The notes under the pieces are model-generated. The model was not told the origin of the DNA and searched no databases. It saw only the letters and a program-made list of their open reading frames with translations. A program made the position numbers and the translations under genes. A DNA stretch of 64,000 nucleotides from the IMG/VR virus record IMGVR_UViG_3300033990_000306, positions 24,475 to 88,474 of that record. One strand, given 5' to 3'. Below, in pieces: positions 12,087 to 64,000 of the stretch (positions within the stretch are counted from its first letter, which is position 1; each line of letters begins with the position of its first letter). Source of the stretch: a virus.

Positions 12087-14378
12087 ATGATAACCGAAGT
12101 AATTAAGAGAAATGGTAAGACTGTTAAGTATGATATAAAGAAAATTACTAAGGCAATATACAAAGCTATGATTGCTAGTAATTTGAGTAATATGAGTGAG
12201 GCTAAGAAATATGCCGAAGAAGTTGAGAAGAGACTGGGAGAGGTCTCCATAATAGGAGTAGAGAAATTACAGGATGTAGTTGTTGAAGTGTTAAGAGAAC
12301 ATAATATTCTTTTGGCGAACATTTATTCCAGCTATAGAGAGGAGAGGAGTTTAGCAAGGAGAGTTGTTGAGAGAATGAATATAGTTGACGAGCTTAAGTT
12401 GCCCAAGAATAGTCTAGAAATTTTAGAGAGTAGGTATTTGCTGAGAGATAAAAATGGAAATATTATTGAAACTCCAAAAGAGTTGTTTGAAAGAGTTGGG
12501 AAAGCAATAGGAGTTATTGAGTTGTGTTATGATTATATTAGTTTTAAGAAAGAGCTTGGAAATGGGTTGAGGTATTTTGGAGAATTGAATATAGCTAAAG
12601 CCGAAAAGGTTTTGAATAATATAATAGCAGAAGCTCCACCCAGAGATAAAAATCCTTTGACATTCAGGGAGTATGTTTCTAAGTATGGTGGGAATGCTAT
12701 TTCTTATTCTAAAAAGTTTATTGACTTTATGAGTAAGTTAAAGTTTCTGCCAAATACTCCTACACTTATGAATGCTGGACTTCCTAACGCCCAATTATCA
12801 GCTTGTTATTTGTTGGGCATAGAAGACAATATGGAGAGTATATTTGACATAGTTAAGGAGACAGCTTTAATACATAAAACAGGTGGAGGTACAGGTTTTA
12901 ATTTTAGTAACTTGAGACCTCAGAATGATTTTGTTAGGAGTACTCAGGGAGTAGCTAGTGGTCCAATAAGTTTTATGAAAATATTTGATGCTGTAACAGA
13001 AGAAATAAAACAGGGAGGTAAAAGAAGAGGGGCTAATATGGGAATGCTCAGATATGACCATCCCGATATTCTTAAGTTTGTTACATTAAAGGACAGTGAA
13101 AATACAATACTGAGAAATTTTAATGTTAGTGTTATTGTAGACGAAGAGTTTTTTACAGCATTGAGAAATGACGGAGAAATAAAATTAAGGAATCCTCATT
13201 CTGTTGAGGTTGGGGAAATTGCTGGGAAAATAAGTGCAAAGAAGTTGTTTAAAGAAATAGCTTATAATGCTTGGAAGTCGGGAGACCCCGGTCTATTTTT
13301 TGTTGATACAGCCAATAGAGATAATTATTTGGAGGGGTATGGTGATATAGAGGGTACTAATCCTTGTGGTGAAGTTCCTATGCATCCTTTTGAGTCTTGT
13401 AACTTGGGAAGTATTAATTTATCTAAATTTGTTGATGAGAATGGAAGGTTTAAGGAAGAGGAGTTTAGAAGTGTAGTGAGGCTAGCAGTTAGATTTCTTG
13501 ATGATGTTATTGATGCAAATGAAATGGGTATAGAGAACGTAAGAAGAATGAATAGAATTGGAAGAAAAATAGGACTTGGAGTAATGGGATTTGCAGATAT
13601 GTTAGTCCTTATGAAAATTAAATATGATTCTCTTGAGGCATTAAATATGGGAGAATACGTAATGAAGACATTGCACGAAGAGTCTTACAAAATGTCAGAA
13701 GCATTAGCCATAGAGAAGTATCCTTTTCCGAATAGTACAGAAAAAATTACAACAGCAAAAGGAAACAAGTATACTGCTGGTAAAATAGAAATTCCTAGAA
13801 GAAATTCTACAGTTCAGAGTATAGCTCCTACTGGGACTATAAGTATAATAGCAGACTGTTCTTCTAGTATAGAGCCTTATTTTGCTTTAGCTTATAAGAG
13901 AGATTATGACGCTATGGGAGTAAATGGTGGGCTTCATACTCTTGTGGAGAAGAATAAGTATTTAGAGAGGGAGTTGAGAGAGAGAGGAATATATAGTGAG
14001 AGTTTAATTAATAGAATAGCAGAGAGTGGAAACCTTAGTAATATAAAAGAAATTCCAGAAGACTTGAGAGAGTTGTATGTTACTGCTCACGAAATTTCTC
14101 CAGAGTGGCATATAATGATGCAGGCAGTATTTCAGAATTATTGTGATAGTGGGGTTAGTAAGACTATTAATATGCCTAACTCAGCTACGGTAGAGGACGT
14201 TGAAAAGGCTTATCTTATGGCTAGGGAATTAAATTGTAAGGGTATAACAATATTCAGAGATGGAAGTAAGAGTACTCAGGTTTTAAAGACTCTAAAGAAA
14301 GAAGTTAATTTAGAGTTGCCTTTGGAAATTCCATTAGACCCTAATGTAACTTGCGCTCACGGAACTTGTGAGCTTTAA
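12087..14378 (+). CDS. nrdJ: class II (adenosylcobalamin-dependent) ribonucleotide reductase with N-terminal ATP cone
   Basis: VIKRNG ATP cone, PNTPTLMNAG, QLSACY, GGGTGFNFS, RRGANMG, TNPCGE, SIAPTGTIS, SKTINMP, C-terminal CAHGTCEL. No beta subunit, no intein. Confidence 0.93.
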   Translation: MITEVIKRNGKTVKYDIKKITKAIYKAMIASNLSNMSEAKKYAEEVEKRLGEVSIIGVEKLQDVVVEVLREHNILLANIYSSYREERSLARRVVERMNIVDELKLPKNSLEILESRYLLRDKNGNIIETPKELFERVGKAIGVIELCYDYISFKKELGNGLRYFGELNIAKAEKVLNNIIAEAPPRDKNPLTFREYVSKYGGNAISYSKKFIDFMSKLKFLPNTPTLMNAGLPNAQLSACYLLGIEDNMESIFDIVKETALIHKTGGGTGFNFSNLRPQNDFVRSTQGVASGPISFMKIFDAVTEEIKQGGKRRGANMGMLRYDHPDILKFVTLKDSENTILRNFNVSVIVDEEFFTALRNDGEIKLRNPHSVEVGEIAGKISAKKLFKEIAYNAWKSGDPGLFFVDTANRDNYLEGYGDIEGTNPCGEVPMHPFESCNLGSINLSKFVDENGRFKEEEFRSVVRLAVRFLDDVIDANEMGIENVRRMNRIGRKIGLGVMGFADMLVLMKIKYDSLEALNMGEYVMKTLHEESYKMSEALAIEKYPFPNSTEKITTAKGNKYTAGKIEIPRRNSTVQSIAPTGTISIIADCSSSIEPYFALAYKRDYDAMGVNGGLHTLVEKNKYLERELRERGIYSESLINRIAESGNLSNIKEIPEDLRELYVTAHEISPEWHIMMQAVFQNYCDSGVSKTINMPNSATVEDVEKAYLMARELNCKGITIFRDGSKSTQVLKTLKKEVNLELPLEIPLDPNVTCAHGTCEL

Positions 14379-41565: not shown

Positions 41566-41850
41566 ATGTACGTAAGTGGTAGAATGCCAAAGGGGGAGTA
41601 TGCTTACCATAAACTTACTCTCGAAGAAGCAAAGAACCTTGTAAGTAGAGGAAATTTTGTCTCTGCTGTAAGGGACAATACGACAGCTAGTGTGCTTAGT
41701 TATCTACTGGAGGTAACTATTCCAGTAAATAAAGAGCCTGTAATTGACTCGAAGGAAGAAGGGCTAATTTTCGTGCCTCACGGACAGGTAAGAGGAGTGA
41801 AAGTTAGTGATATTGACTTCCACTTTAATTTAGTGTTTCCTTTGAGGTGA
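41566..41850 (+). CDS. DUF1874/AcrIII-1 (STIV B116-like) homologue with altered catalytic motif
   Basis: KLTLEEAKNLV....FVSAV...TA.VLS.LL.V.IPVN matches the family, but SAIGH is replaced by SAVRD. Confidence 0.7.
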   Translation: MYVSGRMPKGEYAYHKLTLEEAKNLVSRGNFVSAVRDNTTASVLSYLLEVTIPVNKEPVIDSKEEGLIFVPHGQVRGVKVSDIDFHFNLVFPLR

Positions 41851-47745: not shown

Positions 47746-49614
47746 GTGGAAAAACCAGAATTAGTTATAGGGCAGTTTTGGAATAATGTAATATATGATA
47801 ATTACGGGTTTAGTACTTATATTACGTTTGGCAAAATGACTCATACTTCATTGCTGAACGAAAAAAGTGGAAAGAGTTTTACTATTACAATAGCTGAGCA
47901 GTCTAAACTTTATACTTCTGAACACAAGAGGCAACTGTTTCTATTTTTCCACGAGGTAGGGCATTTAAGTCTTAACAGTTTTAAAATGGACAAAATATTT
48001 CTTGATAAATTTAACCCAGCAGATAGTTTAGCAAGGGATGACATTTTGTTGGGTGTTAATGCCATTGACGACATAATAATAAATTTTGCCATTCCTAGAA
48101 CGTTCATAGGGTTGGAACAGGAAGTTAGAGCTTTTATAGAGGACAATGCTAAAATTCTGAAAATTGACGAAGAAGAAATATTAAAAGCGGCAAAGGGTAA
48201 AATATTAGACCCGAAGTCTTTGGCTGTGTTAGTAGTATTTTCAACCTTAGACCGACTGTTGGGGCTAGGGCTTATTAGAGGGGAGTTAGATAAATATGTT
48301 GGTGAATTTTTTACTGCATTTAACAAACTTCGTTCAGTAGCTGGGTTTGATTTTACTGCTCTTTATGAGAAAGGTCATAAGTTTAATACAACAATTTATA
48401 TGGAAGCATACGAAAATGTTTTGAATACTTTTATAAAGATTGCTGTTGAGTTAAGAAAAAACATTCCAGTAATAAAGGTTCAAACAGAAGGTGTTGGAGA
48501 AAGTGGAGAAGAAGATGATGAGTCTGGAGGTCAAGGTTCTTCACCAAAAGGCGGTAAAAAAGAATCAAAACCTCAGAAGCAGGGTAGTTCTTCTTCTGAA
48601 GCAGAAGAGTCAAAAGAAGAAAAGGAAGAGCAAAAAGCAAAAAAAGGAAAGTCAGGTAAATCTAAAAAAGAAGGAGAAGAAGGAGAAGAGCCGATTACAG
48701 GCTCAAGTGATAGTGTAATAACTCAAGAAGTAGAAATTACATTGACTGACGAGGAAATTAAAGAAATGGCTTCAGAAATTGAAAAGCAAAAAAAGCAACA
48801 TTCTTCTACTGTAGCTAAACCTAGAAAACTTACTATGACAGCTTTAGTGAATAATGCTGATAAAATTTTCGAGAATAAAAGTTATTTGCCATTCTTCAAG
48901 AAAGCGTTAGAGGAAGCGATGAGAGGACTGAGTAAGAAGTTTAATGATGAGAAAGGGAATTTGGTAGTTAGTAAATATGTTCAGGCTTTGAAAGGAGGAA
49001 CGCCAAATATTTTCAAAAGAGCAACAGAACAAAGTGTAGAAAATTCTAAATGGATGTTTGTTATTGACGTGAGTGGGTCAACATTGAGTAGAACTATTCC
49101 TAACTATCCTGACATTACAGTTAGAGCAGAAATAGAAATTGCAAAAACTTTCATAAACCTATTGCCAACTTCGTCTAAATTTTATATGGCGAGATTTGCT
49201 GAACAGTATCAAATTTTGTCTGAGGGGTTTGTTAATAGAAATACTGCTAAAATGTTTCTAGCACAATGCTTGGAGTATGACAGGAGCATAGATGGTACTG
49301 ATACTATTTGGGGAGAAGATATGGTGAAAGAAATGTATGATAAAGCAAAAGAGAAAGTACAGGTAGTTGTATTTACTGACGGACTTGTTGAATTTGAAAA
49401 TGAGAAAGCAAAAAATTTGGCTATTAGATTGTTTAGTGAAATAAATTACAAGCCAATATTGTTCTTCTTCGGGAAAGACTTTATGGAGTATGCTAGTGGA
49501 ATAAGTGAGAAAGCACACTTAAGAACTGACATAGATTTTAATGCTATAGTTGACGGACAGAAAGCTAACAAGAATTTGTTAAAGTATTTGACTTCTATTT
49601 TCCGGAGGTACTGA
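47746..49614 (+). CDS. metallopeptidase-like (HExxH) plus acidic linker plus vWA domain protein (MoxR partner)
   Basis: FFHEVGH, NAIDD..IN, low-complexity E/S/K linker, VIDVSGS MIDAS, GT, VFTDG. Confidence 0.85.
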   Translation: MEKPELVIGQFWNNVIYDNYGFSTYITFGKMTHTSLLNEKSGKSFTITIAEQSKLYTSEHKRQLFLFFHEVGHLSLNSFKMDKIFLDKFNPADSLARDDILLGVNAIDDIIINFAIPRTFIGLEQEVRAFIEDNAKILKIDEEEILKAAKGKILDPKSLAVLVVFSTLDRLLGLGLIRGELDKYVGEFFTAFNKLRSVAGFDFTALYEKGHKFNTTIYMEAYENVLNTFIKIAVELRKNIPVIKVQTEGVGESGEEDDESGGQGSSPKGGKKESKPQKQGSSSSEAEESKEEKEEQKAKKGKSGKSKKEGEEGEEPITGSSDSVITQEVEITLTDEEIKEMASEIEKQKKQHSSTVAKPRKLTMTALVNNADKIFENKSYLPFFKKALEEAMRGLSKKFNDEKGNLVVSKYVQALKGGTPNIFKRATEQSVENSKWMFVIDVSGSTLSRTIPNYPDITVRAEIEIAKTFINLLPTSSKFYMARFAEQYQILSEGFVNRNTAKMFLAQCLEYDRSIDGTDTIWGEDMVKEMYDKAKEKVQVVVFTDGLVEFENEKAKNLAIRLFSEINYKPILFFFGKDFMEYASGISEKAHLRTDIDFNAIVDGQKANKNLLKYLTSIFRRY

Positions 49615-49615
49615 A

Positions 49616-50071
49616 ATGGGTATATTGCTTAAAGACGCTTGGAAATTGGCTAAGAAGGAAGAAAAATCTAAACCAGCAACTCCAGTACCAGCCTCTAATG
49701 AAGCTTCTACTTGGAATACACTCAAATTGCCTGTTGGTAAACAAGTATACAATAGCGAGGAGTTAAACAATTACATTACAAAACTACAAAAATCAAAGCT
49801 AACACATATCAGAGTGCCAATAGATACAAACTTAAAAACTTTCGGTATGGGAATAAATTATTCGGCTTCTCTAATAATTACTAATGGAACTGAATATGCT
49901 TCAGTAATAGTATTTCAGAAATTGTATTTTGTTTCATATTCGGTTTTAGTAGGGAGAGGGTTACTTTCTCAATATCCCCCTTCACAGATTGAGAAAATGA
50001 GTGTAGTAGAAATAAAAGAGAGGAGTACTAAAGACCATAAGAGAACGTATAATATTATTGTAGGAAGGTAA
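49616..50071 (+). CDS. hypothetical protein
   Basis: GGAGG RBS; N-terminus MGILLKDAWKL resembles the shared tag. Confidence 0.55.
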   Translation: MGILLKDAWKLAKKEEKSKPATPVPASNEASTWNTLKLPVGKQVYNSEELNNYITKLQKSKLTHIRVPIDTNLKTFGMGINYSASLIITNGTEYASVIVFQKLYFVSYSVLVGRGLLSQYPPSQIEKMSVVEIKERSTKDHKRTYNIIVGR

Positions 50072-50075
50072 TATT

Positions 50076-50291
50076 GTGAACAAAGAATTAAAGAATAAGG
50101 TATTTATGTTTATAGTAGCAAACAAAAGTAGAAAGGTGTGGACAGCAAAATCATTGTCAAAGAGGTTGGAGATTAATGGAATTTCTATAGCTTGTGCTAT
50201 GTCGGAGTTGGCTAAGGACAATCTTGTTGTTATTGACACTAGTAGAAGAATATACCGTTATTCTTTAAGTGAGGAGGTGTTTAAGAATTGA
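50076..50291 (+). CDS. winged-helix DNA-binding protein
   Basis: WTAKSLSKRL.I....I..A.SEL....LV.......YRY.L pattern. Confidence 0.65.
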   Translation: MNKELKNKVFMFIVANKSRKVWTAKSLSKRLEINGISIACAMSELAKDNLVVIDTSRRIYRYSLSEEVFKN

Positions 50292-50767
50292 GTAATTTGC
50301 TTGAGAGAGGGAAAGAAGTAGTAATTAAAAAACCGGAAAATGTTGTGGAAGACTATAAAGAGCCAGAGGTAGAAACTCTAGGAGGTTGGACTGTTAAAAA
50401 TTTAAGTGAGGAAAATTTGTTTCTTGAAGAGTTTTTGCATAGGCAGTTTCCTGATTATATTTATGTAGAAAACCCTAATATACCAATACCTTTAAATGTT
50501 GGTAAAATGTTACTAAACACAAAAGAAACTATTGTAACTTATGAAACAGGTGTTTTTTCATATAGCAATTATCGAATTAGTTTAGCATTTTCTAGTATTA
50601 AGGTAGTAGTAACTGTAAATGCTAATGTATTATTTTCGGAAGTTTTTAGAAACAAATTTACAAAAGAAGGCTTAAAATACTATGCAGAAAACGGGTATAA
50701 ATTATTTATAGAGCCTGCTAAAACTAAATATATTCCTTCGGTAGAATATCAATTAATAATTAAGTAA
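50288..50767 (+). CDS. hypothetical protein with MSNLLERGKE N-terminal tag
   Basis: TTG start with GAGGAGGTG RBS. Confidence 0.6.
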   Translation: MSNLLERGKEVVIKKPENVVEDYKEPEVETLGGWTVKNLSEENLFLEEFLHRQFPDYIYVENPNIPIPLNVGKMLLNTKETIVTYETGVFSYSNYRISLAFSSIKVVVTVNANVLFSEVFRNKFTKEGLKYYAENGYKLFIEPAKTKYIPSVEYQLIIK

Positions 50768-50777
50768 AGGTGAAATA

Positions 50778-51080
50778 ATGGCAAAAAGTATTACAGAGAA
50801 AATGAAGGACTTGAGAGAAAGTTTCGGAAATAAATGTAATATTTGCGGAAGTAAAAATAATTTACAATTTGCCCATATTAAAGTAACTTCTGTATTAGGC
50901 AATGGGAGAGGAATGAAGAAACGGTATTATGACATAGTTAAGAACAGAGACAGTTATGTATTGCTTTGCGAAAAGTGTCATTATAAGTTTGACCGCAAAA
51001 ATCATATGTGGAAAAACAAAAATACAAATAGAGAATATAAATATAGCTTCGAGAGGTTTAAAAATGAGTTCAGACTATGA
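50778..51080 (+). CDS. HNH-like zinc-binding endonuclease
   Basis: CNICG...NLQFAHI...LLCEKCH..FD. Confidence 0.7.
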   Translation: MAKSITEKMKDLRESFGNKCNICGSKNNLQFAHIKVTSVLGNGRGMKKRYYDIVKNRDSYVLLCEKCHYKFDRKNHMWKNKNTNREYKYSFERFKNEFRL

Positions 51081-51471
51081 AAAGCACGTATACGGGTCAG
51101 CCCCAAGAACAAATAAAGACTGGAGTAAAGCAAACCCCCACAAACTAAAGCTAACTTCAATACCAGAAAATAGAGTGTGTGGGTTTTGTGATACGGTTAA
51201 GGATTATGTATTTGCTCTTAGTGATGTAGTAGTATGCTATAAGTGTGCTAACGAAATATTAGAAAGGAAAGACATTCAGTATGGTATTAAGCCATATAAA
51301 GGTACACCAATGGACCCGATGTTTTGTGCAAGATGTGGAAATGATGTTGTTGAGGGAGTAAGTTTAAACATAAGACTCTGTAATGAGTGTATAACTAAAG
51401 CTGGGAAATTTGAATTGCGTTGGAGAGGGAGAAGAATAAGAAGAGCGAGTGGAGCTAGGAAGGTGGCTTAA
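51064..51471 (+). CDS. multi-CxxC zinc-finger protein
   Basis: CGFC, CYKC, CARC, CNEC; ATG 51064 with GAGG RBS. Confidence 0.65.
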   Translation: MSSDYEKHVYGSAPRTNKDWSKANPHKLKLTSIPENRVCGFCDTVKDYVFALSDVVVCYKCANEILERKDIQYGIKPYKGTPMDPMFCARCGNDVVEGVSLNIRLCNECITKAGKFELRWRGRRIRRASGARKVA

Positions 51472-51849
51472 ATGAATAAAACTTTGCTTTATAAGTTTTC
51501 TGAGCAATTCTCTAAGTACAAAGAAGAGAAGAAAGCTATAAGGAATTTTGCAATGGAAAAATTCGGTCTTGTTTTCTCTAACAGTATTAGAAGTATAGAC
51601 TGGAGTATTAATGATTGGTATATTGCAGAAAATGATTCAGTAATGATGATGAAGTTTTCAAAAGAAAACGGTAGAATTATTTCTGAGGAAATGACCTTTG
51701 AGGCATTTAGTAAAAATGACTTTGAAGCCTACTATAACTTTCATAAAGAGAAGTTAACCAGCCTTACGACCATTTACTCACCTAAAGCTCAACATACCCC
51801 TAAAATGAATTATAAATTGGAGGCGAATAATAATGGGAAAACAAATTGA
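51472..51849 (+). CDS. hypothetical protein
   Basis: Translationally coupled ORF. Confidence 0.5.
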   Translation: MNKTLLYKFSEQFSKYKEEKKAIRNFAMEKFGLVFSNSIRSIDWSINDWYIAENDSVMMMKFSKENGRIISEEMTFEAFSKNDFEAYYNFHKEKLTSLTTIYSPKAQHTPKMNYKLEANNNGKTN

Positions 51850-52303
51850 AGAAGAAGTAAGAAATATAACAAACGTAGACTACGGGCATTTTTTGCCCAA
51901 CTATAGCGGAAAATGTAACCACCTGCATTACCACACAAGCTGGAATATAGGTGTTACACTAAAAGGAGAAATTATAGCTGGAGAGAGAATGCTCATAGAC
52001 TTTGGTGACGTAAAGAGAATTGTAAAAGAAGCAGTAAATTTTATAGACCACAAAATGATAGTGCCAATGTCTGCCTACAAAGAAACAACAAAAGACGGGC
52101 GAATTAAAGCCGAGTACGAAAACAGAACACTAATACTACCAATAGAGGAAGTAGCATTGTTTGACAAAGACAGTACCGCAGAAAACATAGCAGACTACTT
52201 GGCAGGGCAAATTCTAACTCAACTCCCACTAAACATAAACTCCGTAACAATACACTTTAGCGAAGGAGTAAACAACTACATAAGTGCGGAGGCTGTCAGG
52301 TAA
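51833..52303 (+). CDS. queD: 6-carboxy-5,6,7,8-tetrahydropterin synthase
   Basis: HFLPNYSGKCNHLHYH, LIDFGDVK, DHK, STAENIA. Confidence 0.88.
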   Translation: MGKQIEEEVRNITNVDYGHFLPNYSGKCNHLHYHTSWNIGVTLKGEIIAGERMLIDFGDVKRIVKEAVNFIDHKMIVPMSAYKETTKDGRIKAEYENRTLILPIEEVALFDKDSTAENIADYLAGQILTQLPLNINSVTIHFSEGVNNYISAEAVR

Positions 52304-52600
52304 TGAAGTTATTCTCACTTCCTAAAGCGGAGGAAGCATATAGTATTTTTATGAGAATGCAGAGATTGAAAGAGGAGTTTAGTAGGTTGGAGAGAGAGCT
52401 TAATAAGGTTATTATAACGTTTTCTCCTCAAGATATGGAAGAGTACTTAAAGAAAAAGAAAGGGGTCAGGTAAATGGTGGACTGGAGATTAGAGTTGGGT
52501 GCTATAAAGAAATTGCTTGCTAATGAGGAAATTACACTAGACCAGTATATGGCTAGTATGGAGATAATATTACAGCATATGGTGGAGGACAACAATTAAT

Positions 52601-52954
52601 ATGTTAGACAAATTTGTGAAAGTGTATAAAGTGTACCAGACTATGACACTTAATGAAGTTTCTGACAAACGTATAATAGGAGACTTTACAGTATTAGGAA
52701 ATACGCTTGGGCTTGACAGTACTTATACAGTTAAAATTAAAGGTACTACTTCTAAAAACTTTATGAGAATAGGTTATTTCATAGACGAAGCTAAGCCTCA
52801 AAATAAGCCAATAGCAAGAATAATATATGACAGTTATGGTCTAATTATTCATATACGAAAACACCTGTTAACACCAGAAGTTGTAGAAAGACTAAAACTC
52901 TGGGCTGGAAATAATTTAGTAGAAGGAAGATGGAGTAAGTCAAATGTTAAGTAA
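52601..52954 (+). CDS. hypothetical protein
   Basis: GGAGG RBS. Confidence 0.5.
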   Translation: MLDKFVKVYKVYQTMTLNEVSDKRIIGDFTVLGNTLGLDSTYTVKIKGTTSKNFMRIGYFIDEAKPQNKPIARIIYDSYGLIIHIRKHLLTPEVVERLKLWAGNNLVEGRWSKSNVK

Positions 52955-53801
52955 ACATACTTCAAATTTGCCTAGTTATTCTTTGGACTCACCAATAGTT
53001 TACCAGCTTGAAATAGTAGGAGGTACTTGTAACTTGAAGTGTCCTGTTTGCCCTGTAACAGAAAATAAAACAGACAGGGTAAATAACTACTTTAGTCTAG
53101 CTACACTTGACAAGCTAATAAATGAAGACGCTTTTAAAAACACTTTCTACTTAGAACTACAAATGTATGGAGAACCAACAATGCATAGAAACTTTGACGA
53201 AATAGTAAGCAAACTGAAAACTACTGGGGTCAAACTTGGGCTAAGCACTAACGCTACAATATGGAGAGAGGGCTTTAAACAATTAGACTTTATAACTATT
53301 TCCGCAGACAGCCGAATTTACAGGGTTGGGCGAAATGAAGAACACTTCTGGAAAGTAGTTGACAAAATAATAAATGAAACTAACGCTCATATTGATTTGC
53401 AGGTCATAGAAATTAACGACTGGGAAAAGCAGGTAAAATTGCTGGAGGAAAAATATAAAGACAAAAGCAACGTGTTAATAAGAACAATAGGGGACAACTT
53501 CGGAGACACGGGAAGACACCCGTTAGCTAATGATGTTTGTATTAACCCATTCATTAGTGTGAGTGTAGATAGTGACGGAGACGTAGTTCCTTGTTGCTTT
53601 ATGAATAATAAAGAGTATGTCTATGGTAATATTAATACTAACAGTCTGAAAGAAATTTGGGAAGGGCAACTTCATAAAGACTTCGTAGAAAGTTGGTTAA
53701 GCGGAAATATTATTGAGAAGTGTAAAAATTGTAGAATGAGGAGTCCACAGTTATTACATTATAGGTTTGCCGTAGAATGGGAAAGGAGAGGGTGGTTGTA
53801 A
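52944..53801 (+). CDS. radical SAM protein with C-terminal SPASM/Twitch domain
   Basis: CNLKCPVC, YGEPT.H, STNA; CINPF..V.V..DGDVVPCC...GNI...SL.EIW...CKNC. Confidence 0.88.
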   Translation: MLSKHTSNLPSYSLDSPIVYQLEIVGGTCNLKCPVCPVTENKTDRVNNYFSLATLDKLINEDAFKNTFYLELQMYGEPTMHRNFDEIVSKLKTTGVKLGLSTNATIWREGFKQLDFITISADSRIYRVGRNEEHFWKVVDKIINETNAHIDLQVIEINDWEKQVKLLEEKYKDKSNVLIRTIGDNFGDTGRHPLANDVCINPFISVSVDSDGDVVPCCFMNNKEYVYGNINTNSLKEIWEGQLHKDFVESWLSGNIIEKCKNCRMRSPQLLHYRFAVEWERRGWL

Positions 53802-54787
53802 TGATAACAAAATATTCCAGAATACCGCATATAGATAGTGATGAAGTAGTAAGAGTAATTAAAAGTCTAGAGACAAATAAGTATGTTATAGAAGAGAAAG
53901 TAGATGGCTCTCAATTTAGAATTTATGTTAGTGAAAATGGAGAACCTACTTTCGGCAGTCACGGAGTAGACTTTCAGGAATTAGAAGGCAATTATGTGTT
54001 TGGAGAGAAATACCAGAAAGTAGAAAGTATGTTTTCTCTTGCAATAAAGAGAGGACTTGAAGTTGCTGAAAGGTGGAAGACTGACCACAAGGGAGAGAGC
54101 TTAATGCTATTCTGTGAATTTATGCACTCAGAAAGGGAAAACACATTGCTATATGAAAGAGTACCTAAAAATAATCTCTATTTGTTTGACGCTAAAATAA
54201 ATGGAGAGTTAGTTAAGGAAGAAGAGAAACTAATTAACTTGGCGAACTACCTAGAGCTAGAGCCAGTTAATGTTTATGCTATACTTGACCACTTTCCTAC
54301 AATCGAAGAAGCACACTCTTACTATACTAAGCCAAGCTGTCTGGGAGGGATAATAGAAGGGGTAGTAATAAAGAATAGAGAGGCTATGGTTGAACGTTAT
54401 GGCAACATTACTTTCTTTGCTATGAAGGCGGTCAATACCAGCTTTACACAGTTAAATAAAGAAACTTGGAGAAAAGAAAGAAAAGCTGGAATAAGAAGTA
54501 TTGACGACTTAATAGACTTTCTGTTTGAAAAAGTGGACAAACAAACTATTTGGGCTCATACTTACGCCCACACTAAAGAGGAGGGCAACCTTACTGGGCA
54601 AATGAGAGATATGGTCGAGTTAATAAAAACATTTGAAAAAGACTTTGAAGAAGACTATCGTGAAACAGTAAGCAAACTACTCTATGAGAGCCTCAAAAGC
54701 AAAATAATAAAACAGGGGCTAAGAGGACTGGCAGAGTGGTACAAAGACAAACTAATAGAAAACTTGGGCAACTCGCTAAACTCTTAA
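53801..54787 (+). CDS. ATP-dependent RNA ligase (Rnl2-like)
   Basis: KY.RI.H, EEKVDGSQFR (motif I KxDG), FCEF, YLFD, EGVVIK, MKAV. Confidence 0.8.
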   Translation: MITKYSRIPHIDSDEVVRVIKSLETNKYVIEEKVDGSQFRIYVSENGEPTFGSHGVDFQELEGNYVFGEKYQKVESMFSLAIKRGLEVAERWKTDHKGESLMLFCEFMHSERENTLLYERVPKNNLYLFDAKINGELVKEEEKLINLANYLELEPVNVYAILDHFPTIEEAHSYYTKPSCLGGIIEGVVIKNREAMVERYGNITFFAMKAVNTSFTQLNKETWRKERKAGIRSIDDLIDFLFEKVDKQTIWAHTYAHTKEEGNLTGQMRDMVELIKTFEKDFEEDYRETVSKLLYESLKSKIIKQGLRGLAEWYKDKLIENLGNSLNS

Positions 54788-54919
54788 ATACTCTTTTCTT
54801 ATAACAAGGACAGAGCAAGGAGTATTATATTATTATTATACTATAGCTATAGAATAAATATAGTATAGTATAATATTAGCTTAAGCTTATTATAAGTATA
54901 CTGTACAAAAGGTGAGAAA

Positions 54920-55826
54920 ATGGAAGAAGTTTGGTTGTATAGAAACACAGAGAATTTGAGAATGTACGTGCCCGTTCTAAATACTACTGTGGTCTTAAGT
55001 AAAGACTTACATAGTATAGACATTATGGAAATAAAGGCTGGGCAAATTGAAGAGCGGGAGCCTGACGAAAAACTGAATGTGAGCGAAAAGTATATAAACT
55101 TGTTAAAAAGTTATGACTACTTGAGCGAGTCTGTAAGAAAGAGGTCTTACGACATATTGAGGAGGGCTGATGAAAAATGGAAAGTGAAGGTGTAGAGGGA
55201 GCAATAGGAATTGTAGCATTGGTGTTGGGGGTTATTGGGTTGACTATATTAATATTGGCGGTGATATGAATTGGACTCCGATGGAACTTTTGCGTTGATA
55301 GTTATATTTGTAGCTATACTGGTGAATGTCCTATATGAATATTTTGTTGTATATGGACTAATTAAGTATGCTATGAATTTCGCCCTTATTGGAGAAGGTT
55401 GGGTAGTTGTAGTGTTAATAGTGCCCATATTCTTTGTTATTGTAGGAGGAATATATTTAGCTTTCTTTAGTATAATTGGAGTAGTAGCTTTATTTAGCTA
55501 AGTAGAACAATATGAAAATATTGCCCGAAGAGGAGGTAGAGGAGAGGTATAGTAGAATGGAAAAAGTAAGACAATATTTATTATCTTTTCTCCCAGTTAA
55601 AGGTTGGAAGGTGTCTATTGAGGTGGAAAAGGAGTTAGGAATAATACATATAGTGTTTATTATGACAGAGAAAGAGAAAAATTCGACTCAAAGTAGAATA
55701 ATAAGTGAAAGGTTTGTGAATGATATAATGGAAATTGTTTGTAAGGACTTTCACTTGAAACCACTTGGGAAGAGTTTTCCAGTATTTTTGGCTAACACAA
55801 TAAGGTATGATGTGATGATTGAATGA
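54920..55826 (+). other. three small hypothetical genes (54920, 55271 membrane protein, 55512)
   Basis: ORF track; GGTGA RBS before 54920 and 55271; two TM helices in 55271. Confidence 0.5.
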
Positions 55827-58800
55827 AGCCTAATAATTTAAGCGAAGAGCAAATAAAGAAAGCTGAGCAAAATTCCTCTTCATATTTGTTTGACTTGGCA
55901 GTTTTAATGCAGAATAAATTATATGTGCATCGTTATTATGTTACTTTTTTCGTTAATAGTTCTAGTTTTATAACCTTTAAATGCAAGGACAAGGACGGTA
56001 GAGCATTTCTTAATATATTACAAAATAAGTTGGACGATTATAGAGCTAAGTATGAAATAACATATTTCTATTATAATGAAGACAGGTTTGTTGTTAATGT
56101 TAAATTTGAAATATTAGAGAGATTTATGGAGGAAGTTAAATGAAGCCCAACAATTTAAGCAAAGCTCAAATAAAAGAGGCTGAGCGAAATTCAGCTTCAT
56201 ATTTGCTGGGCTTAGGGTTTAGAATACGAGACTGGTTATACGCAGAGCGTTATATTACTACTTTCTATGTTAATAGTGCTGACTTTATAACATTTAAATG
56301 GACAGATATGTCTATAGAATTTATTAAGGTGTTACAAAAAGTATTGGATAGAGAACGTATTAAATGCGAAATAGTATACTACTACATTAATAATGGGGCA
56401 TCATATGTTAATATTAAGTTTGACGTATTAGAATCCTTTATCGAGAGGGTGAAGGTATGAAAGAGAGTTTAGAAGTAAGTTCTGAGGAGAGAAATAATTA
56501 TTATAAAGTTCAGGAGGAGTTAAGGAGAAATATTAGCAAGAACTCTAATTTATATGTTTGTGACGTATATTCAAATGGCTTTCCTTTTATTACCGCAGCA
56601 ATGTCTATTCATAGTAAGTATATTGATGAGGTAAGGGAAATTATATTGAGTAGAAAAGACATATTTGAAATTACGTATGAGTATACATTTTTAGCTGGTT
56701 ATTATTTTAATGTCTTAGTCAAGGTGAAAGTATGAAAGAGAGTTTTGAAATAAATTACGAGGAGGTAGGTAATTATTTTCGCTTTGAGCAGGAGTTAGAG
56801 TCTGATATTATTGAGAGAACTAGTTCAGGCATTTGTAAGGTATATTCAAATGAATTTCCTTTTATAAACGTAACAGTATCTATTTACAGTAATTATTATA
56901 GTGAGTATATTAATGACATAAGAAAAGTAATATTAAGTAATCAGAGTATCTTTGAAATTACATACGAGTATACTTTTTTAGACAACTATTATTTTAATGT
57001 GTTAGTCAAGGTGAGCATATGAAAGAGATAAATAATAGGGCAATTCTTGAGAATGAGCTTAAAGAGTATAATACTATTTACTTAGAGTTAATTAATGCCA
57101 TTTCCCGAAATAATTATTCGAGTGACTGTTGGGTTCTTTTTAATGAATTTCCATTTATTAATGTTATTACAACTGTAGCTAATATGTACTTTAATGAAAA
57201 CATAAGAGTAATTATATTGAGAACAAAGGGAGTTTCTGGAATAACGTATGAGTATACAGCTAAAGGATTTCATTATTTTAACATTTTAGTCAAGGTGAGC
57301 ATATGAAAGAGAGAAAGAATTGGGCAATTACTGGTAATGAAGTTAGAGAGTATAATTATGTTCACCAAGAGTTAATGCGTAATCTTACTCGAAATAATTA
57401 TTCGACTGAGTCTTGGGTATTTTTAACTGAATATCCTTTTATTAATGTTGTTGCAACTACTGTTAATATGCACTTTAATGAAGACATAAGAAAAGTTATA
57501 TTGAGAACAGATAAAGTTTCTAGAATAACATATGAGTATTCAATTAAGGGACTTTATTATTTTAAGGTTTTAATTAAGGTGAACATATGAAAGAAACTTC
57601 AAGAATAACTAAAGAGTGGGTAACTAAATATAACTTAATTCAACGGAAAATAGAAAGTATTATTGTTAGTAAGGCTTACGCATTTAAGTGTTGGACAAGT
57701 CAAAAAGAATTTCCTTTTGTAGAAGTTATAATGAGTAATTGTAATTTCTTTTGTGATGAGATAAGAGATTTTATATTGGCAGTAGATAAAGACGTTAGTA
57801 TAACTTATGAGTATGAAATTTGGAATGAATATCATCTTAATATTCTGGTGAAAATATGAAAGAAAATTTGGAAGCAACTATTGGGTGGATAAATAAGTAT
57901 CAGTCTCTTCAACTGAAGTTAAATGATATTATTGCTAGTAAAGCTTATAGAATTGATTGTTATGTAATAGCAAATGGATTTCCTTTTATGAATGTTGTAG
58001 TAGATGAGTGGAGTTCATATTATTATGAGATAAGAAATATTATATTGGCACTAAATAAAGACGTTAGTATAACATATGAGTATATAGTTGAACATAAGTC
58101 TTATCTTAATGTTTTGGTGAGAATGTAGAGAAGGGTATAATATGGAAGAAAGAAAATATTGGAGTTTAAGTAGCGTTGAGTTAAGAAAGTGGGAGTTCTT
58201 TGAGAATTATTTAGACAAAACTTTTGCTAGTAATCCTTATTACTTCTTCTATAAGGTGGAAAAGAGGGATTATCCTTTTCTTACAGTTTTTATATTTATA
58301 GACCATAATAAAACAGTTGACATTGATTTAGCTAGAAGACTTATTTCGTTACCAAGTGATTACTTTAGTATAGTAAATGAGTACTATTTGAAAGATTATT
58401 ATTATTTTAGTGTTCTTGCTAAAATATAATTTTAGGTAGGAGTGTAATTAATATGAATGCTAAAACTGCGTATGAGTCTTCGCTGGCTGTTAATTATTGG
58501 GAAAATTATTTAGTTCCTATTCTTTATGGTAACTTGGTACATAGGTTGGAAGACAATGGTATTGAGAGAGAATATATTTATACAGAAGTATATTCTTTTT
58601 TTCAGGTAGCACTTAGAAATTGTGACTTTATAAAAGTAAGAGAATTAATAATGGAATTGGACTATAGCCCTAAAATAGTTAATGAATTTGAGGTTAGAGA
58701 GTATCACTATATTCACGTGTTATTTAATATAGAGTAAGGAGTAATATGAGAAATAGAACAGACTACGAAACTGAGTATATTAATCATAAGTGGGTAGTAG

Positions 58801-59645
58801 CTTTAGATATTTTTTATTTGCAATTTTTGAAAAAGTTAAAAAATAATGATATTGCTGTAAGTAGGATTAACACAAAGGAGTATTCATTTATGACAGTTAA
58901 AGTTAATAGTAAATCTCCTTATATTGACGAAATAATAGATTTGATAATGGAGTTAAGTTATGAGCCTAAAATAGTTGCTGAATATAGACTTAGAGAGTAT
59001 TATTATATTAACGTTCGTTTTAATATAGAGAGTTGAGAAAAATGATGAAAGTTGAAACTGATGCAGAAGCAGAATACAACGTTAAGTGGTGGAAAACTTT
59101 AGCTAAGAGTCTTAGAATTACTATAAATTATAAGTTAAATAATAGAAAAATTTTGAGCATTATTAGAATATATAGCAGTGGATTTTGTTTCTTTACTATT
59201 CAATTTTATGATAAGAAGTATTTTGATGGCATATTACAGGTTATAAGTGAATTATCGTTTGAGCCTAAAGTTACTTTGATATATGAGCGGATGGGGTTTT
59301 ATTATATTAATTTTAGGTTTAAAATATAGGGGTGAAATTATGAAAGAGCATAAAACTCTGGAAGAAATAAGGGAGTACAAAGATAAGAATTATAAAACTT
59401 TAGTTTTAGCTAGGGGTTCGATGGAAGGGGATAATCATTTGTTTTTTCCTTTTGCTTTTACAATATTTATTAGTAATTATCAATTCTTGACTATTATAGT
59501 AACTACTTCTGTCAGGGACGTTGATAAGTATATATTAAACCCACTAAAGGCTTTGTTGAGAAATGAGTTTTCAAATACTTTAAGAATAATTTATGTATAT
59601 AAGTTAAGAGATTGTTATAGAATAAATATAGGTATTAATGAGTGA
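55823..59645 (+). repeat. tandem array of 13 paralogous ~90-106 aa genes (55823, 56140, 56457, 56732, 57019, 57303, 57587, 57856, 58142, 58453, 58746, 59033, 59340)
   Basis: Shared (F/Y)(P/S)F(I/L/M).V core, I...I...I.(Y/N)EY and YY.N(V/I) C-terminus; ATGA-coupled junctions such as TTAGTCAAGGTGA-N3-TATGAAAGAGA. Confidence 0.85.
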
Positions 59646-59894
59646 GGTGAAATAATGACAACAAAAAATGTAGTGGTTAAATTTTGGGAGGAAGGGTTAG
59701 AAGGTAAACTTGGGTTAGTAGTAGAGTATGATGATGATGAAGAAGAAGCAGAGATAATACATACGTTGACGGAAATTAGTAAGTTATTCTTTAGCAATTT
59801 CATAGTTGTATTTGAGGACTTTTCAGAACCTAAAGAAAATCTTTAAATATTTTATAATAATTATGATTTAACCAGAATTAAAACTATATGGGAG

Positions 59895-60392
59895 TTGGTG
59901 AATATGGGACTTAGTATGACTTTGAGTAGAGTTTGGTATTTCTATAGTCCAGAATTGAAAAAAGAACTTGAAGAGATAGTTAGAAAAACACTTAAAGAAA
60001 AGGTGAGTAAAGAGTTTAATTTCAGGAATTTGTCAACCGTGGTGGAAGACGTAATATATTGGAATAAAGCTAATATGATTCACCATTGGTTTGTAGAAAA
60101 CATTCAAAGAGGAGTAGATGATTGTGGGACTTATGAAGTTTCTTTTGAAACTCTTAAAAATATTAAGTCAATAATTGAAGAGGTATTGAAAGACCATACT
60201 AAGGCTAAAGTTATGTTGCCTACAATGGATGGGTTTTATTTTGGGTCTGTGGAGTATGACGATTATTATTTCGAAGAGTTGGAGTATACTTCAAAAGAGT
60301 TGGAGAAAATAATAAAGGAAGAGGAAGAAATTAGATTTGCCGTAAATGCAACAGGTATAACAATGTATTATGAGTATAGGTCTTCGTGGTGA
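59895..60392 (+). CDS. conserved phage hypothetical protein (MGL...YW.KAN.IH.WF family)
   Basis: YWNKANMIHHWFV..Q.G.DDC, LPT..GFYFGS.EYD.YY, YEYRSSW; real start probably ATG 59904. Confidence 0.7.
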   Translation: MVNMGLSMTLSRVWYFYSPELKKELEEIVRKTLKEKVSKEFNFRNLSTVVEDVIYWNKANMIHHWFVENIQRGVDDCGTYEVSFETLKNIKSIIEEVLKDHTKAKVMLPTMDGFYFGSVEYDDYYFEELEYTSKELEKIIKEEEEIRFAVNATGITMYYEYRSSW

Positions 60393-60820
60393 TAAAAATG
60401 AAAACGTGTGAAGTTTGTGAAGGGAAAGGTATAATAATTGCCGAAGAAAGAACCACTTGCCCGACTTGTAAGGGGAGTGGAATGGTGGACGATACAGAGG
60501 AGAAGAAAAGGCAGTTGCTTAGAGAGGTTATGGAAAGTTACCCAGAAGCTTCTTCTCCAAGTTTACTCTGTGTTAAATGGGACTACAAGAATATGGTATT
60601 TAAATTTGAAGAATATTTTGAAGAGTCTTATGGGGCATATTATACAGTAACAGAAGACGACTTGCTGAAAGGGCTTGACAAATTTTTAGCAATATGTAAT
60701 GCTGGAAATTACCATAATAATAGTTTTCCAAACGGGTATGAGGATGCAGGAAATTGGGACGCTATAGACGTAGATGCTTTAGTTCAATGTACAATTTTTG
60801 GGGAGATAATATATGGTTAA
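60386..60820 (+). CDS. protein with N-terminal DnaJ-type CxxCxGxG zinc finger
   Basis: CEVCEGKG and CPTCKGSG; C-terminal DA.DVDALVQ..IFGEIIYG. Confidence 0.65.
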   Translation: MVIKMKTCEVCEGKGIIIAEERTTCPTCKGSGMVDDTEEKKRQLLREVMESYPEASSPSLLCVKWDYKNMVFKFEEYFEESYGAYYTVTEDDLLKGLDKFLAICNAGNYHNNSFPNGYEDAGNWDAIDVDALVQCTIFGEIIYG

Positions 60821-61079
60821 TTTATTTGCTGAAGCTAGGCAGATTCTGGAAGGGCATATTAGTGATAGAGATATTGGTAAAGAAAGGTCTATGAAAAAAA
60901 TAGTTGAAGTTTTTAATACTTTGACTGGTCAAAATTTGACAGAACACGATGGAGATATTTTTATGGTTTGCTTAAAGCTAGTAAGAATGCAAAGGGCTTT
61001 TAAGGTTAGGGATAATTATGTTGACGCTTTAAATTATATAGCTATGGCATATGAATCGTTGGGAGTTGAAAATGATTAA
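60813..61079 (+). CDS. DUF6378-like helical phage protein
   Basis: EA..I..G..., I..VFN..TG..LT..D...FM..LKLVR....DNYVD...Y.A. Confidence 0.65.
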   Translation: MVNLFAEARQILEGHISDRDIGKERSMKKIVEVFNTLTGQNLTEHDGDIFMVCLKLVRMQRAFKVRDNYVDALNYIAMAYESLGVEND

Positions 61080-63414
61080 TTGTTTTTCTGTAGTGTTTGG
61101 TAAGAGTACTTGGAAAATATTAACAGTTGAAGTATTGCTTGTACTCACAATTATAAGTATTGAAGTGTTTGGAGGTACACAATATTATTATTTGCCATTA
61201 GTTTTAAACGTGCTATTGGTGTTGTTGCTTATATATTCTTTAATTGTAGTATTACTTCTTGTTACTTTGTGTAATGATTATGATTTATTGACTGGAGAGG
61301 ATGAGTAAATGAGTGGTATAAAAGCATATAATTATGTGGAGAAGTGTAGTAGTTGCGGGAGAAAAATGTTAGTTAGTGTATTCCAATTTGGGGTAAGTCA
61401 CGTGGGAGGAATTTCAGTTTTATGTCCTGACTGTACTGCGAAAGTAAATTGGGAAGAGGGTTATTTTAAAGAGCATCCCGAAGAAGTAGAGAGAATAAAA
61501 GAAGAGTTAAAGGAGGATGACTAAGTGAGTACTGCAAAGAATATACAGATAATGGAAAGAAAGCGAGGGAAATGGTATTGCTATTTTTGTGGTGAAGAAA
61601 TAACTTCTCTTGACAGGAAGCACTATGAAAAGTGTGAGTTAGATGATGTTGATATTACAGAAGGAGAACACGAAAGTGTAGAAATAGTATCGTTTAAGTT
61701 TAGGTGGAAAAATAAAAAGGAGGGAAAATAAATGGAGAAAGTTAATGTGAACGAAATGTTAGACAAAGCATTTGAGGAGAATTGGGAAGAGTTGAAGAAC
61801 GAGAGAAAAGATAGTTACGTTGTTGTAAGTAAAAATCTGGAAGAGGAAGCTTATATTTTATTTACAGCCGGATATATGAGTTGCTATAATGACTTTGTGA
61901 AGAAAGGTAAAGAAGAGGTTGAAGAGAGCGGAGAAAAATATTTGCAAGTAGAAAATTATATTGAGAATGAAGAAAACAGTATAGAGGTGGATGATTTTCT
62001 TGGAGGTCGTAGAGTTAAGACTAGGTACAAGTTAAGGGAGTGGGAAGAAATGAATAAAGGAGAACTAGTTTATGAGTTTAAAAGGTGGGCAGATAATTAC
62101 AGAATAAAGCCAGAGCAGGAGGACATAGAAGTAATAGAGGCTCTTCCAGAAGATAACTATATGTATATTATTAGTACAGAAGATGAAGAGTGGAGTCGAT
62201 TTATTTATGAGGGAGGGGCTCAGAGTAATAGACATTCCAAGTTTATGAATTTTGTTTATATGTCTAAAACTTTTTATGTGGACAGGAGTTTGGGCGAAGA
62301 CATAAAAATAAGATTTGTGATATTTGGAGAGAAGGGGGTGAGAGTTTGAAAATAATGATTGCAGATAAAAATATAGGTAAGTGTGAGGCGTGTGGTCTTT
62401 CAATTATTGAGGGAGATAATTATGTTCGTTATGCCAAAACAGAAGATGTAATAAAAAAGGGCAGAACAACGAAACTTATGCAGGGCAAAGAGTCTTTTAA
62501 TCTTCATAAGGTTTGTGCAGATATGGTTAGAAATAGGGATGAAATTGATGATGAGCCTAAAGACATAATACTTGAGTGGGTAGGACTTATTTGGAATACA
62601 AGTTTGCCCGGTAAAACTTTGGAGGAAGTTATTAGTGTAGTTCCAGAAATGGATGATATTTTTATAGAGAAACGTCAGAAGATTATTAAAAGGTGGAGAG
62701 AATTTTACTTAGAAAGAGTAAAGAAAGAAAGAATGGAAGGGAGAGATTTTAGTGCTGAAACTTTGGGTCCTGTATGGTAAAAATTTTAATCATAGGTGGG
62801 TTATAAAAACATTTAGGTCAAAAGAGTCGGCTATTGATGCTTGGAAAGGGGAGAGAGAAACAATGAAAACTAGTAGAAGAGGTTGGTGGGTTGACCAAGA
62901 CATTGATAAGGCAATTCAGGAAATTGAAGTAGAGGAGAGAGGTGATTAAATGGTGTTTAGTTTTCCACAAAGATTTACTCAAGTTAATGAGTGGTTTTTG
63001 TATGATGGTACTTACTGGATGAATGATGTTACGTTTGAAGGAAGATGTGGAGGTCCAGATGGTCATTTGACTAAATTTATAAGTGATGAAGAATTTAAGT
63101 TGAAGGCGAAGGAATTTGAAAAGTGGTTTAAAGAGCATCCTCATTCTTTTATGTTTAAAGTAATGACTGAGAAGACTGAAAATGAATGGGGATGTTTTGC
63201 CGAAGGACAAGAGTGGGTGGGGTAAATGATACCTGTGTATATTGTTGAGGAAAACGTTAATGGTCAATGGAGACCAAGAGTTGTTTATTCAGAGAGAGAC
63301 TTAGCAGAATTATGGGTTAAGAGAGTTTGTCCTCTTGAGTTAAAGGATGAAAATAAATTTATTATTGAGGTCGTAGATGGAGTTGGATTAAAGTGGGCAA
63401 GAGAGTGTGATTGA
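61072..63414 (+). other. run of small coupled hypothetical genes (membrane protein, CxxC zinc ribbons at 61309, 61525, 62346, and others)
   Basis: Back-to-back + strand ORFs, each with a GGAG/GGTG RBS; no function recognised. Confidence 0.5.
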
Positions 63415-64000
63415 AATGAATATAGAAGAAAGTAATTATAGATGTTTTATGAGAGGGTCTGGAGATTGCAAGGGAGAAGTTAGAAGGTTTCAAGTTGGAA
63501 CGGACTTCATTGATATTTGCGTTAGGCATTGCGTTCTGTTGAAGGAAACACTTACTGAGGAGGGATTTTAATGCCAATGTGTTGGTTGGTGAGTCAATTA
63601 GTACCTAGTTCAGTTGAGACTGGAGTACCATTTTATGAACCTTTAATGGTCTTTCACTTTAATTCTATGGCAAAGGACTGGATTAAAGAGCGAGAGAATG
63701 AAGGACATTTTTATCTTCGTGAAATTTTATGTGAGGGGTTTTAAATGAATAAGTTTATTTTTGTTTATAAACCTGATGAAAGAAGAGAGAAATGGTATTT
63801 GACGTTTACTTTAAGTGGTTCTAATTTTTATATTCTGTTGAGTAAGTCAGATATGAAGAAATTGTCAAAGGAAATTAAGAGGGTGGGGTTTTAATGAGAA
63901 TAGAAGTATGTGAAGCCTGTGGGAATGGAATTAACATTAAACGAGGATACTTTGTACGAGTGTATGAAGAGTTTCCAGAAAAGCACGTCTATCATCTTTT

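Follow-up and report, generated by a model that had tools for sequence, protein, structure and literature searches.

Why does a virus carry thirteen small genes of one kind in a row, and how do such rows come to differ between strains? The question is raised by positions 55823-59645 of the window, a 64,000-nucleotide stretch (positions 24,475-88,474) of IMG/VR virus record IMGVR_UViG_3300033990_000306, an 88-kb record that is ~79% complete. A first-pass annotation, made from the letters alone, had called 13 consecutive plus-strand open reading frames (ORFs) there and described them as a gene accordion of rapidly diverging paralogues; all 13 are present, with products of 90-106 aa each. With high confidence, the array is a lineage-restricted tandem multigene family, for which both anatomy and evolution can be described. 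Ten certain and three probable homologues lie next to one another on one strand; the family is found in a single lineage, and its copy content varies between close relatives.

Membership was examined using a core hidden Markov model (HMM), which was built from the ten ORFs of 56457-59329 and run against the six-frame translation of the window. The genes are as follows, where E refers to the core HMM and P to profile-profile alignment by hhalign.

55823-56143, plus strand: copy 1, 106 aa, probable member in a remote subfamily, with an extra C-terminal helix in its AlphaFold2 (AF2) model; 52% identical to copy 2
56140-56460, plus strand: copy 2, 106 aa, probable member in the same remote subfamily; E 3e-4, P 7e-4
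56457-56735, plus strand: copy 3, 92 aa, proximal core subfamily (FPF...ITYEY...NVLVKV); E 9e-35
56732-57022, plus strand: copy 4, 96 aa; E 2.5e-32
57019-57306, plus strand: copy 5, 95 aa; E 9e-33
57303-57590, plus strand: copy 6, 95 aa; E 3e-34
57587-57859, plus strand: copy 7, 90 aa, the core member modelled with AF2; E 6e-36
57856-58128, plus strand: copy 8, 90 aa; E 6e-35
58142-58429, plus strand: copy 9, 95 aa, on a long branch in the tree, 25% aromatic residues; E 7e-28
58453-58737, plus strand: copy 10, 94 aa, with which the distal subfamily (YSF...PKIVNEY...NIE) begins, a chimera by comparison with a second strain (contig L001, below); E 2e-26
58746-59036, plus strand: copy 11, 96 aa, a hypervariable allele; E 5e-30
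59033-59329, plus strand: copy 12, 98 aa from a TTG start, database versions beginning at an internal Met; E 1e-27
59340-59645, plus strand: copy 13, 101 aa from an ATG preceded by a Shine-Dalgarno (SD) motif (GGTGA), probable remote member; P 4e-6, E 2e-3

The ten ORFs of 56457-59329 are recovered at E 1e-26 to 1e-36, and are also joined by all-against-all BLASTP. The next-best matches in the window are the flanking ORFs 56140 (3e-4) and 59280-59642 (2e-3), the rest being at 0.03 or above. Copy 1 connects only via copy 2 (BLASTP about 1e-35 at the 52% identity). When aligned with the core profile, the pair of copies 1 and 2 gives the above P of 7e-4 (probability 26%) and copy 13, taken together with its L001 paralogue, gives 4e-6 (probability 87%), both co-linear and in register. 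Gene 9410, an extra gene of L001, aligns in register at P 1e-4, and a control ORF at 55512 gives no profile signal against the core (P 0.32). Ten members are thus certain and three (55823, 56140 and 59340) probable, the latter being accepted because of the profile-profile alignment and an identical topology that was predicted independently. The single family proposed by the first-pass annotation is borne out, as profile searches unite the ORFs instead of leaving them apart.

Among the databases searched, the family occurs in a single virus lineage. A word-indexed search of 5.8 billion proteins returned only the window's own proteins and near-orthologues, and an exhaustive HMMER search of 1.84 billion representatives gave 12 matches, all from this virus lineage. 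Pfam, PHROG, NCBIfam and PADLOC scans of the members gave no credible match, and a family-profile search of PDB sequences gave two chance matches only (E > 1). The array has no megablast match in GenBank phages, and a GTDB genome scan with P0001 returned nothing. IMG/VR scans with P0008, P0009, P0015 and the RNA ligase returned nothing, or one spurious locus (L012). Ten distant viruses having the neighbour gene 59895 lack both the family and an equivalent array.

Every frame of the array is intact, as had been claimed, with no in-frame stop in 1254 codons, compared with 138 and 216 stops in the other two forward frames and ~122 in shuffled sequence. Many of the genes were also said to be ATGA-coupled, and the junctions indeed comprise eight ATGA overlaps and one TTGA overlap, the remaining gaps being 8-23 nt. 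An SD motif (GGTGA, GGAGG, AGGAG or GAGG) precedes 10 of the 13 starts, and each gene's SD sits within the final codons (V-K-V) of the gene before it. Because of the overlaps, the gaps of at most 23 nt and the SD motifs, the array is predicted to be one translationally coupled operon segment, from which the 13 genes would be co-transcribed. Their products are predicted to be small soluble proteins.

How the row grew is suggested by its internal divergence. The closest relative is the adjacent gene for 11 of the 13 genes, and the closer neighbour pairs are exactly those named by the first-pass annotation (copies 1/2, 3/4, 5/6, 7/8 and 10/11). Sequence distance grows with positional distance (Mantel r=0.61, p=0.0002), in agreement with the gradient of divergence that it had noticed along the array. 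The tree has four groups, namely the proximal subfamily (56457-58142, with FPF, ITYEY and NVLVKV), the distal subfamily (58453-59329, with YSF, PKIVNEY and NIE), the first pair and the last gene. This neighbour pairing fits array growth by one-unit tandem duplication. The description of the paralogues as rapidly diverging is only partly right: pairwise aa identity among copies is 12-56%, and the copies are old, having diverged after duplication with each individually intact, while the proximal ten are nearly unchanged between strains.

Junction DNA had been considered better conserved than gene interiors. This is so relative to the mean, as pairwise identity is 0.75 in the junction block (AAGGTGA..ATGA) and 0.56 on average, but three internal codon blocks are equally or more conserved (FPF 0.74, IR..I 0.79 and YEY 0.80). 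Synonymous divergence in the 3′ part encoding the C-terminal hairpin is not reduced (dS 0.42 versus 0.17-0.29 elsewhere), so junction conservation largely reflects protein constraint on the C-terminal strand codons, together with the SD (GGTGA) and the ATGA overlap, rather than selection on DNA. The same synonymous divergence speaks against junction DNA being kept at the DNA level to serve recombination, an idea that was rejected.

Copy content was compared with that of metagenome contig SCLI03000545.1 (L001), which carries the same virus with 98.7-99.1% identity on both sides of the array. L001 has 16 array genes, compared with 13 in the window, so the suspected copy-number variation is real between near-identical strains. 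Window positions 58734-59331 (597 bp, copies 11 and 12) are swapped for 1503 bp in L001. This segment holds a strongly diverged additional member (gene 9410), another gene resembling 58453 (9711), copy 11 and copy 12 alleles with just 66-68% protein identity to those of the window, and an additional copy of gene 13, 57% identical and placed upstream of gene 13 (L001 10592 and 10910). Between copy 12 and its L001 allele 10288, with 68% aa identity, the ratio of nonsynonymous to synonymous divergence (dN/dS) is 0.32. Both haplotype breakpoints are at gene junctions.

58719-58722, plus strand: left breakpoint, a crossover interval in the conserved last-strand codons of copy 10, from the three-way alignment
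59329-59340, plus strand: right breakpoint, at the SD and start of copy 13, where the comparison with L001 changes from unrelated sequence to 99% identity at 59331

In the three-way alignment, copy 10 of the window tracks L001 gene 9117 up to ...CACGTGTT (column 90), and from column 93 it tracks the tail and junction of L001 gene 9711 (the 9711-to-10001 junction). Copy 10 is a chimera of these two L001 paralogues. Together with the breakpoints at junctions, the chimera is direct evidence of unequal recombination altering copy number: on at least one occasion, copy content was changed when paralogues underwent unequal homologous recombination within conserved 3′-end and junction DNA. The idea that junctions could seed such exchange, raised by the first-pass annotation, is supported in this case.

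Further variants are found in databases. There are at least four alleles of copy 11 among database clusters, 66-78% identical on a 99% identical background, and additional strain-specific paralogues (P0013 and P0015) lie on other contigs. Other haplotypes are carried on contigs of 132.6 kb, 70 kb, 35.8 kb and 4.6 kb, and family members are also present on a contig of 6,006 bp. On the 4.6-kb contig, copy 7 (57587-57859) occurs as a variant, P0019, with IRNIILAI in helix 2 in place of IRDFILAV, and copy 8 has IRNIILAL; the variant helix partly matches the latter, as if a short tract had been converted between the two neighbouring genes.

The rest of the array is quiet. Between the window and L001, the proximal ten genes have 3 nt differences, all synonymous, with no aa change, and flanking genes diverge by up to ~3.6% per 500 nt. 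Array orthologues have in all 2 aa versus 5 synonymous differences, and all copies are intact in L001. The array is a stable proximal block with a strain-variable distal cassette end, set within mosaic strain divergence.

The mosaic itself was observed over 49337-61579, where blocks without single-nucleotide polymorphisms (51337-52336, 55837-58336 and 60337-61579) alternate with blocks of 2-3.6% divergence to L001, which suggests frequent homologous recombination among co-circulating strains. Next to it, 2.2 kb (61579-63778) are missing from the otherwise 98-99% identical L001. They contain ORFs 61732-62349 and 62346-62780 as well as 62818-63267, the only sizeable minus-strand ORF, all three without a Pfam match.

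What kind of protein is encoded was approached by structure prediction. The AF2 model of copy 7, from a 17-sequence family alignment, has a predicted local distance difference test score (pLDDT) of 86 and a predicted template modelling score (pTM) of 0.76, with a helix at 9-28, strands at 35-39 and 44-50, a helix at 56-66, and strands at 70-78 and 81-88. The model of copy 1, for which the alignment was its own pair only, has a pLDDT of 90 and an order of α-β-β-α-β-β-α, which is the core order plus a C-terminal helix. The structural-neighbour lists of the two models largely overlap. Thus, the models indicate a two-layer α/β scaffold, α1-β1-β2-α2-β3-β4, as predicted common ground of the members.

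Three fold classes were compared with it: the PilO/GspM/GspL-type permuted ferredoxin-like domain, the gpU-like tail terminator and YajQ. The α-β-β-α-β-β two-layer order of the PilO/GspM/GspL type is found in both AF2 models by DSSP, and no structural match stands out clearly from the background of the aligner (Z ≤8.9). YajQ is the top Foldseek match, with a nonsignificant E of 8e-3. Foldseek against PDB and BFVD gave no match at E ≤ 1e-3, and ESM Atlas gave no usable feature match, its structural neighbours being generic only.

The scaffold is conserved unevenly. By the Nei-Gojobori method (NG86), dN/dS is 0.28 and 0.62 in two older pairs, the latter being copies 3/4 with 54% identity, and 1.34 and 1.42 in the two youngest pairs, which are copies 5/6 (56% aa and 78% nt identity, the youngest pair) and copies 7/8 (43% identity). 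Bootstrap intervals of the youngest two (0.7-3.2) span 1, so positive selection is not significantly supported. When three young pairs are pooled, the ratio (ω) is 1.02 overall, but it is 0.47 in β3-β4, compared with 1.36 in the N-terminus and helix 1, 1.68 in β1-β2 and 1.53 in helix 2. Likewise, among the four alleles of copy 11, invariant positions make up 27-33% in β1-β2 and the following loop versus 76% in β3-β4. Net charge ranges from -8 to +8 across copies (isoelectric point, pI, 4.3-9.7), and aromatic content is 14-25%, compared with 10% in the large proteins of the virus. In short, the C-terminal hairpin is conserved, and the β1-β2 hairpin, the β2-α2 loop, helix 1 and net charge are highly variable. 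The pattern fits a fixed scaffold with a diversified surface and does not fit decay.

The virus that carries the array is likely an archaeal tailed virus, as judged from its genes. The basis is fourfold: the large terminase subunit is closest to that of Halogranum tailed virus 1 (HGTV-1), at 28%; 19 of 21 relatives of the ribonucleotide reductase (RNR) large subunit (12087-14378) are archaeal; the DNA polymerase is of family B; and ORF 41566-41850 (94 aa) matches PF08960 (STIV B116-like, the AcrIII-1 ring-nuclease family) with 30.9 bits against a cut-off of 26. The closest RNR relatives are from Thermoplasmata metagenome-assembled genomes (48-50% over the full length), followed by those from Woesearchaeota and Nanoarchaeota (~42%), and this affinity is a hint to the host lineage. 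Proteins identical to those of the window are also encoded on the 132.6-kb contig, and the genome size is about 130 kb. GC content is ~33% in the window and falls to 28% across the array, and nearly all genes of the window are on the plus strand.

The array lies in a block of small ORFs after the RNA ligase and radical-SAM genes, away from the head, tail and packaging genes. Its neighbours are a radical-SAM/SPASM protein, the RNA ligase, a DUF6378 protein, a zinc-finger protein and small ORFans. Two further features upstream of the array belong to its surroundings.

54790-54919, plus strand: intergenic region rich in AT and in palindromes, with the SD (GGTGA) of ORF 54920 at its end
55512-55826, plus strand: ORF 55512, 104 aa, with an ATGA overlap with the first array gene

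The small-gene operon that holds the array apparently starts after the intergenic region. Inverted repeats of this region include one at 54823-54870 with 24-nt arms and zero spacer, and the region is likely a candidate promoter/operator of the long small-gene operon, including the array. Its palindromic element was also considered as a common early-regulon motif and rejected, as only weak matches occur elsewhere in the window. ORF 55271-55501, which belongs to this operon and lies two genes ahead of the array, encodes a very hydrophobic 76-aa protein, a predicted membrane protein that is identical in L001. As for ORF 55512, its membership is not supported by sequence, given the hhalign result above. 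By eye, it has a helix-strand-strand-helix-strand-strand pattern, and its Atlas model has YajQ-type neighbours, like the family model. It may be a very old, extremely diverged 14th member, and is kept as a candidate.

What, then, are the products for? In our estimate, the chances are about even that they constitute a binder repertoire that serves host interaction or anti-defence, a reading based on the division into scaffold and variable surface, on the accessory context, on a membership that varies between strains and on precedents of the AcrID1 type (below). The common scaffold would be directed in each copy at a different or variable partner, and the role would be an accessory one in host interaction or anti-defence, possibly the neutralisation of host toxin or immune effectors. 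Several results weigh against this. In the libraries searched, no protein known to act in anti-defence, immunity or host takeover matches the members by sequence, profile or fold. The dN/dS values above 1 lack statistical support. An ongoing arms race predicts otherwise than the mere 3 synonymous differences in the proximal ten genes of two strains, although this block may alternatively have been a recently shared recombinant segment. Finally, the fold belongs to a generic class, of which the solved examples (PilO and GspL/M) are dimerising assembly domains. A far more specific version, to which we give rather low credence, is that of a new virus-encoded combinatorial binder scaffold, in which a fixed α/β core carries a hypervariable β1-β2 hairpin and loop, cassettes are swapped by junction-guided recombination, and each copy neutralises a different component of host defence or a toxin. 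If true, this would be a new superfamily of anti-defence, possibly anti-CRISPR, proteins acting in Thermoplasmata-type hosts.

The paralogues might instead be subunits of a homo- or hetero-oligomer (scaffold, chaperone, or virion/neck parts) that pair via β-sheets or helices, duplication having provided interchangeable subunits. We consider this unlikely, as the structural matches do not clearly exceed background, charge spans -8 to +8 and the array is outside the head, tail and packaging genes. In its obligate form, the hetero-oligomer proposed by the first-pass annotation is unlikely in particular because array membership varies between 99%-identical strains (13 versus 16), which is hard to square with an obligate complex. 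Binding of nucleic acids or nucleotides, with the members serving as gene-specific regulators or RNA chaperones, would suit a permuted ferredoxin-like sandwich with conserved strand aromatics (FPF, YEY and YY), whether by an aromatic sheet face like that of RNA-recognition motifs or in a YajQ-like manner. YajQ is the top Foldseek match, and a similar proposal has been made for the ~35-copy Zn-ribbon expansion of phage G (PMC7824862). We nevertheless think it distinctly improbable, because a number of members are strongly acidic, with a pI of 4.3-4.9 and a net charge of -6 to -8, none has a known nucleic-acid-binding motif or Pfam match, and the fold match is not significant. Least credible by far is that the array is non-functional debris of tandem duplication, decaying under relaxed evolution. 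An overall dN/dS of ~1.0 in the three youngest pairs and the ORFan status of the family, with no relative outside the lineage, are what debris would give. However, the stop-free 1254 codons, the retained SD motifs and ATGA coupling, the ω of 0.47 in the C-terminal hairpin, a hydrophobic skeleton conserved enough for confident AF2 models, and the intactness of all copies in the second strain, with orthologues differing by 2 aa versus 5 synonymous changes, largely refute it. Relaxed, pseudogene-like evolution, which the first-pass annotation had named as contrary to its proposal, is therefore not what is seen.

The finding as it stands is descriptive. Multigene arrays of small ORFan proteins occupy a considerable part of many large virus genomes, and to our knowledge almost none of these arrays has a known function. 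The group behind the present example has been sampled poorly and apparently consists of tailed viruses that infect Thermoplasmata-like archaea. The example provides a tractable case for array evolution and binding, as it combines confident models, a split between scaffold and variable hairpin, whole-gene haplotypes and a breakpoint mapped to the base. The protein family is a new ORFan family, but tandem multigene families as such have been described before in large phages. In phages G and 121Q, over 30 genes lie in tandem (PMC5646251), and phage G has ~35 Zn-ribbon copies (PMC7824862). Like those arrays, the one described here consists of same-strand, back-to-back small genes from one ancestor, is lineage-restricted and adds to genome size. 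Unlike them, it encodes proteins of a separate family and fold class that had not been seen before, is found in a virus with a probably archaeal host and a ~130-kb genome, below the jumbo range, and has a copy-number-changing breakpoint mapped to the base. The remark that thirteen copies are exceptional for such a virus therefore holds for archaeal tailed viruses, in a survey of which no such array is mentioned (PMC8651126), but not when the larger arrays of the jumbo phages are included.

A precedent in archaeal viruses is AcrID1 of Sulfolobales rudiviruses, a ~100-aa protein with 26 of its 35 homologues in four rudiviruses and a minimum identity of 7% (PMC11065993). Its paralogue clusters were read as duplication and functional diversification of anti-defence genes, and the genes are mostly monocistronic with early promoters of their own (PMC11065993). 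The likeness is in small archaeal-virus proteins with several clustered, strongly diverged paralogues per genome. However, no sequence relationship was detected (family profile versus PDB chains; Pfam and PHROG libraries), the genes here are in an operon predicted to be translationally coupled, and the viruses belong to a different realm and morphotype, tailed here and rod-shaped in the case of AcrID1. If the array proteins were defence inhibitors, they would add to a very short list of archaeal anti-defence families.

Eukaryotic viruses have comparable families. MGF110, MGF360 and MGF505 of African swine fever virus and the host-range families of poxviruses are diverged tandem paralogues, whose number varies between isolates via unequal recombination, with a variable end, and which are accessory host-interaction genes. 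Proteins and hosts are unrelated to those of the array, so the likeness is in behaviour only. In the K3L-type gene accordion of poxviruses, acute selection drives a transient amplification, and the copies are nearly identical. The array resembles it in that copy number shifts by recombination between tandem units, but identity among its copies is 12-56% and most of them are retained stably, even the youngest pair (78% nt) falling short of near-identity. The term accordion, in the poxvirus sense, is hence a misnomer for the array.

For the recombining unit itself, a parallel is the lpl cluster of Staphylococcus aureus. The conserved and recombining unit there is reported to run from the 3′ end of one ORF across the junction into the 5′ end of the following ORF (PMC2568036). 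The lpl cluster differs from the array in being bacterial and chromosomal and in encoding lipoproteins, and resembles it in that the unit of conservation and recombination spans the gene junction.

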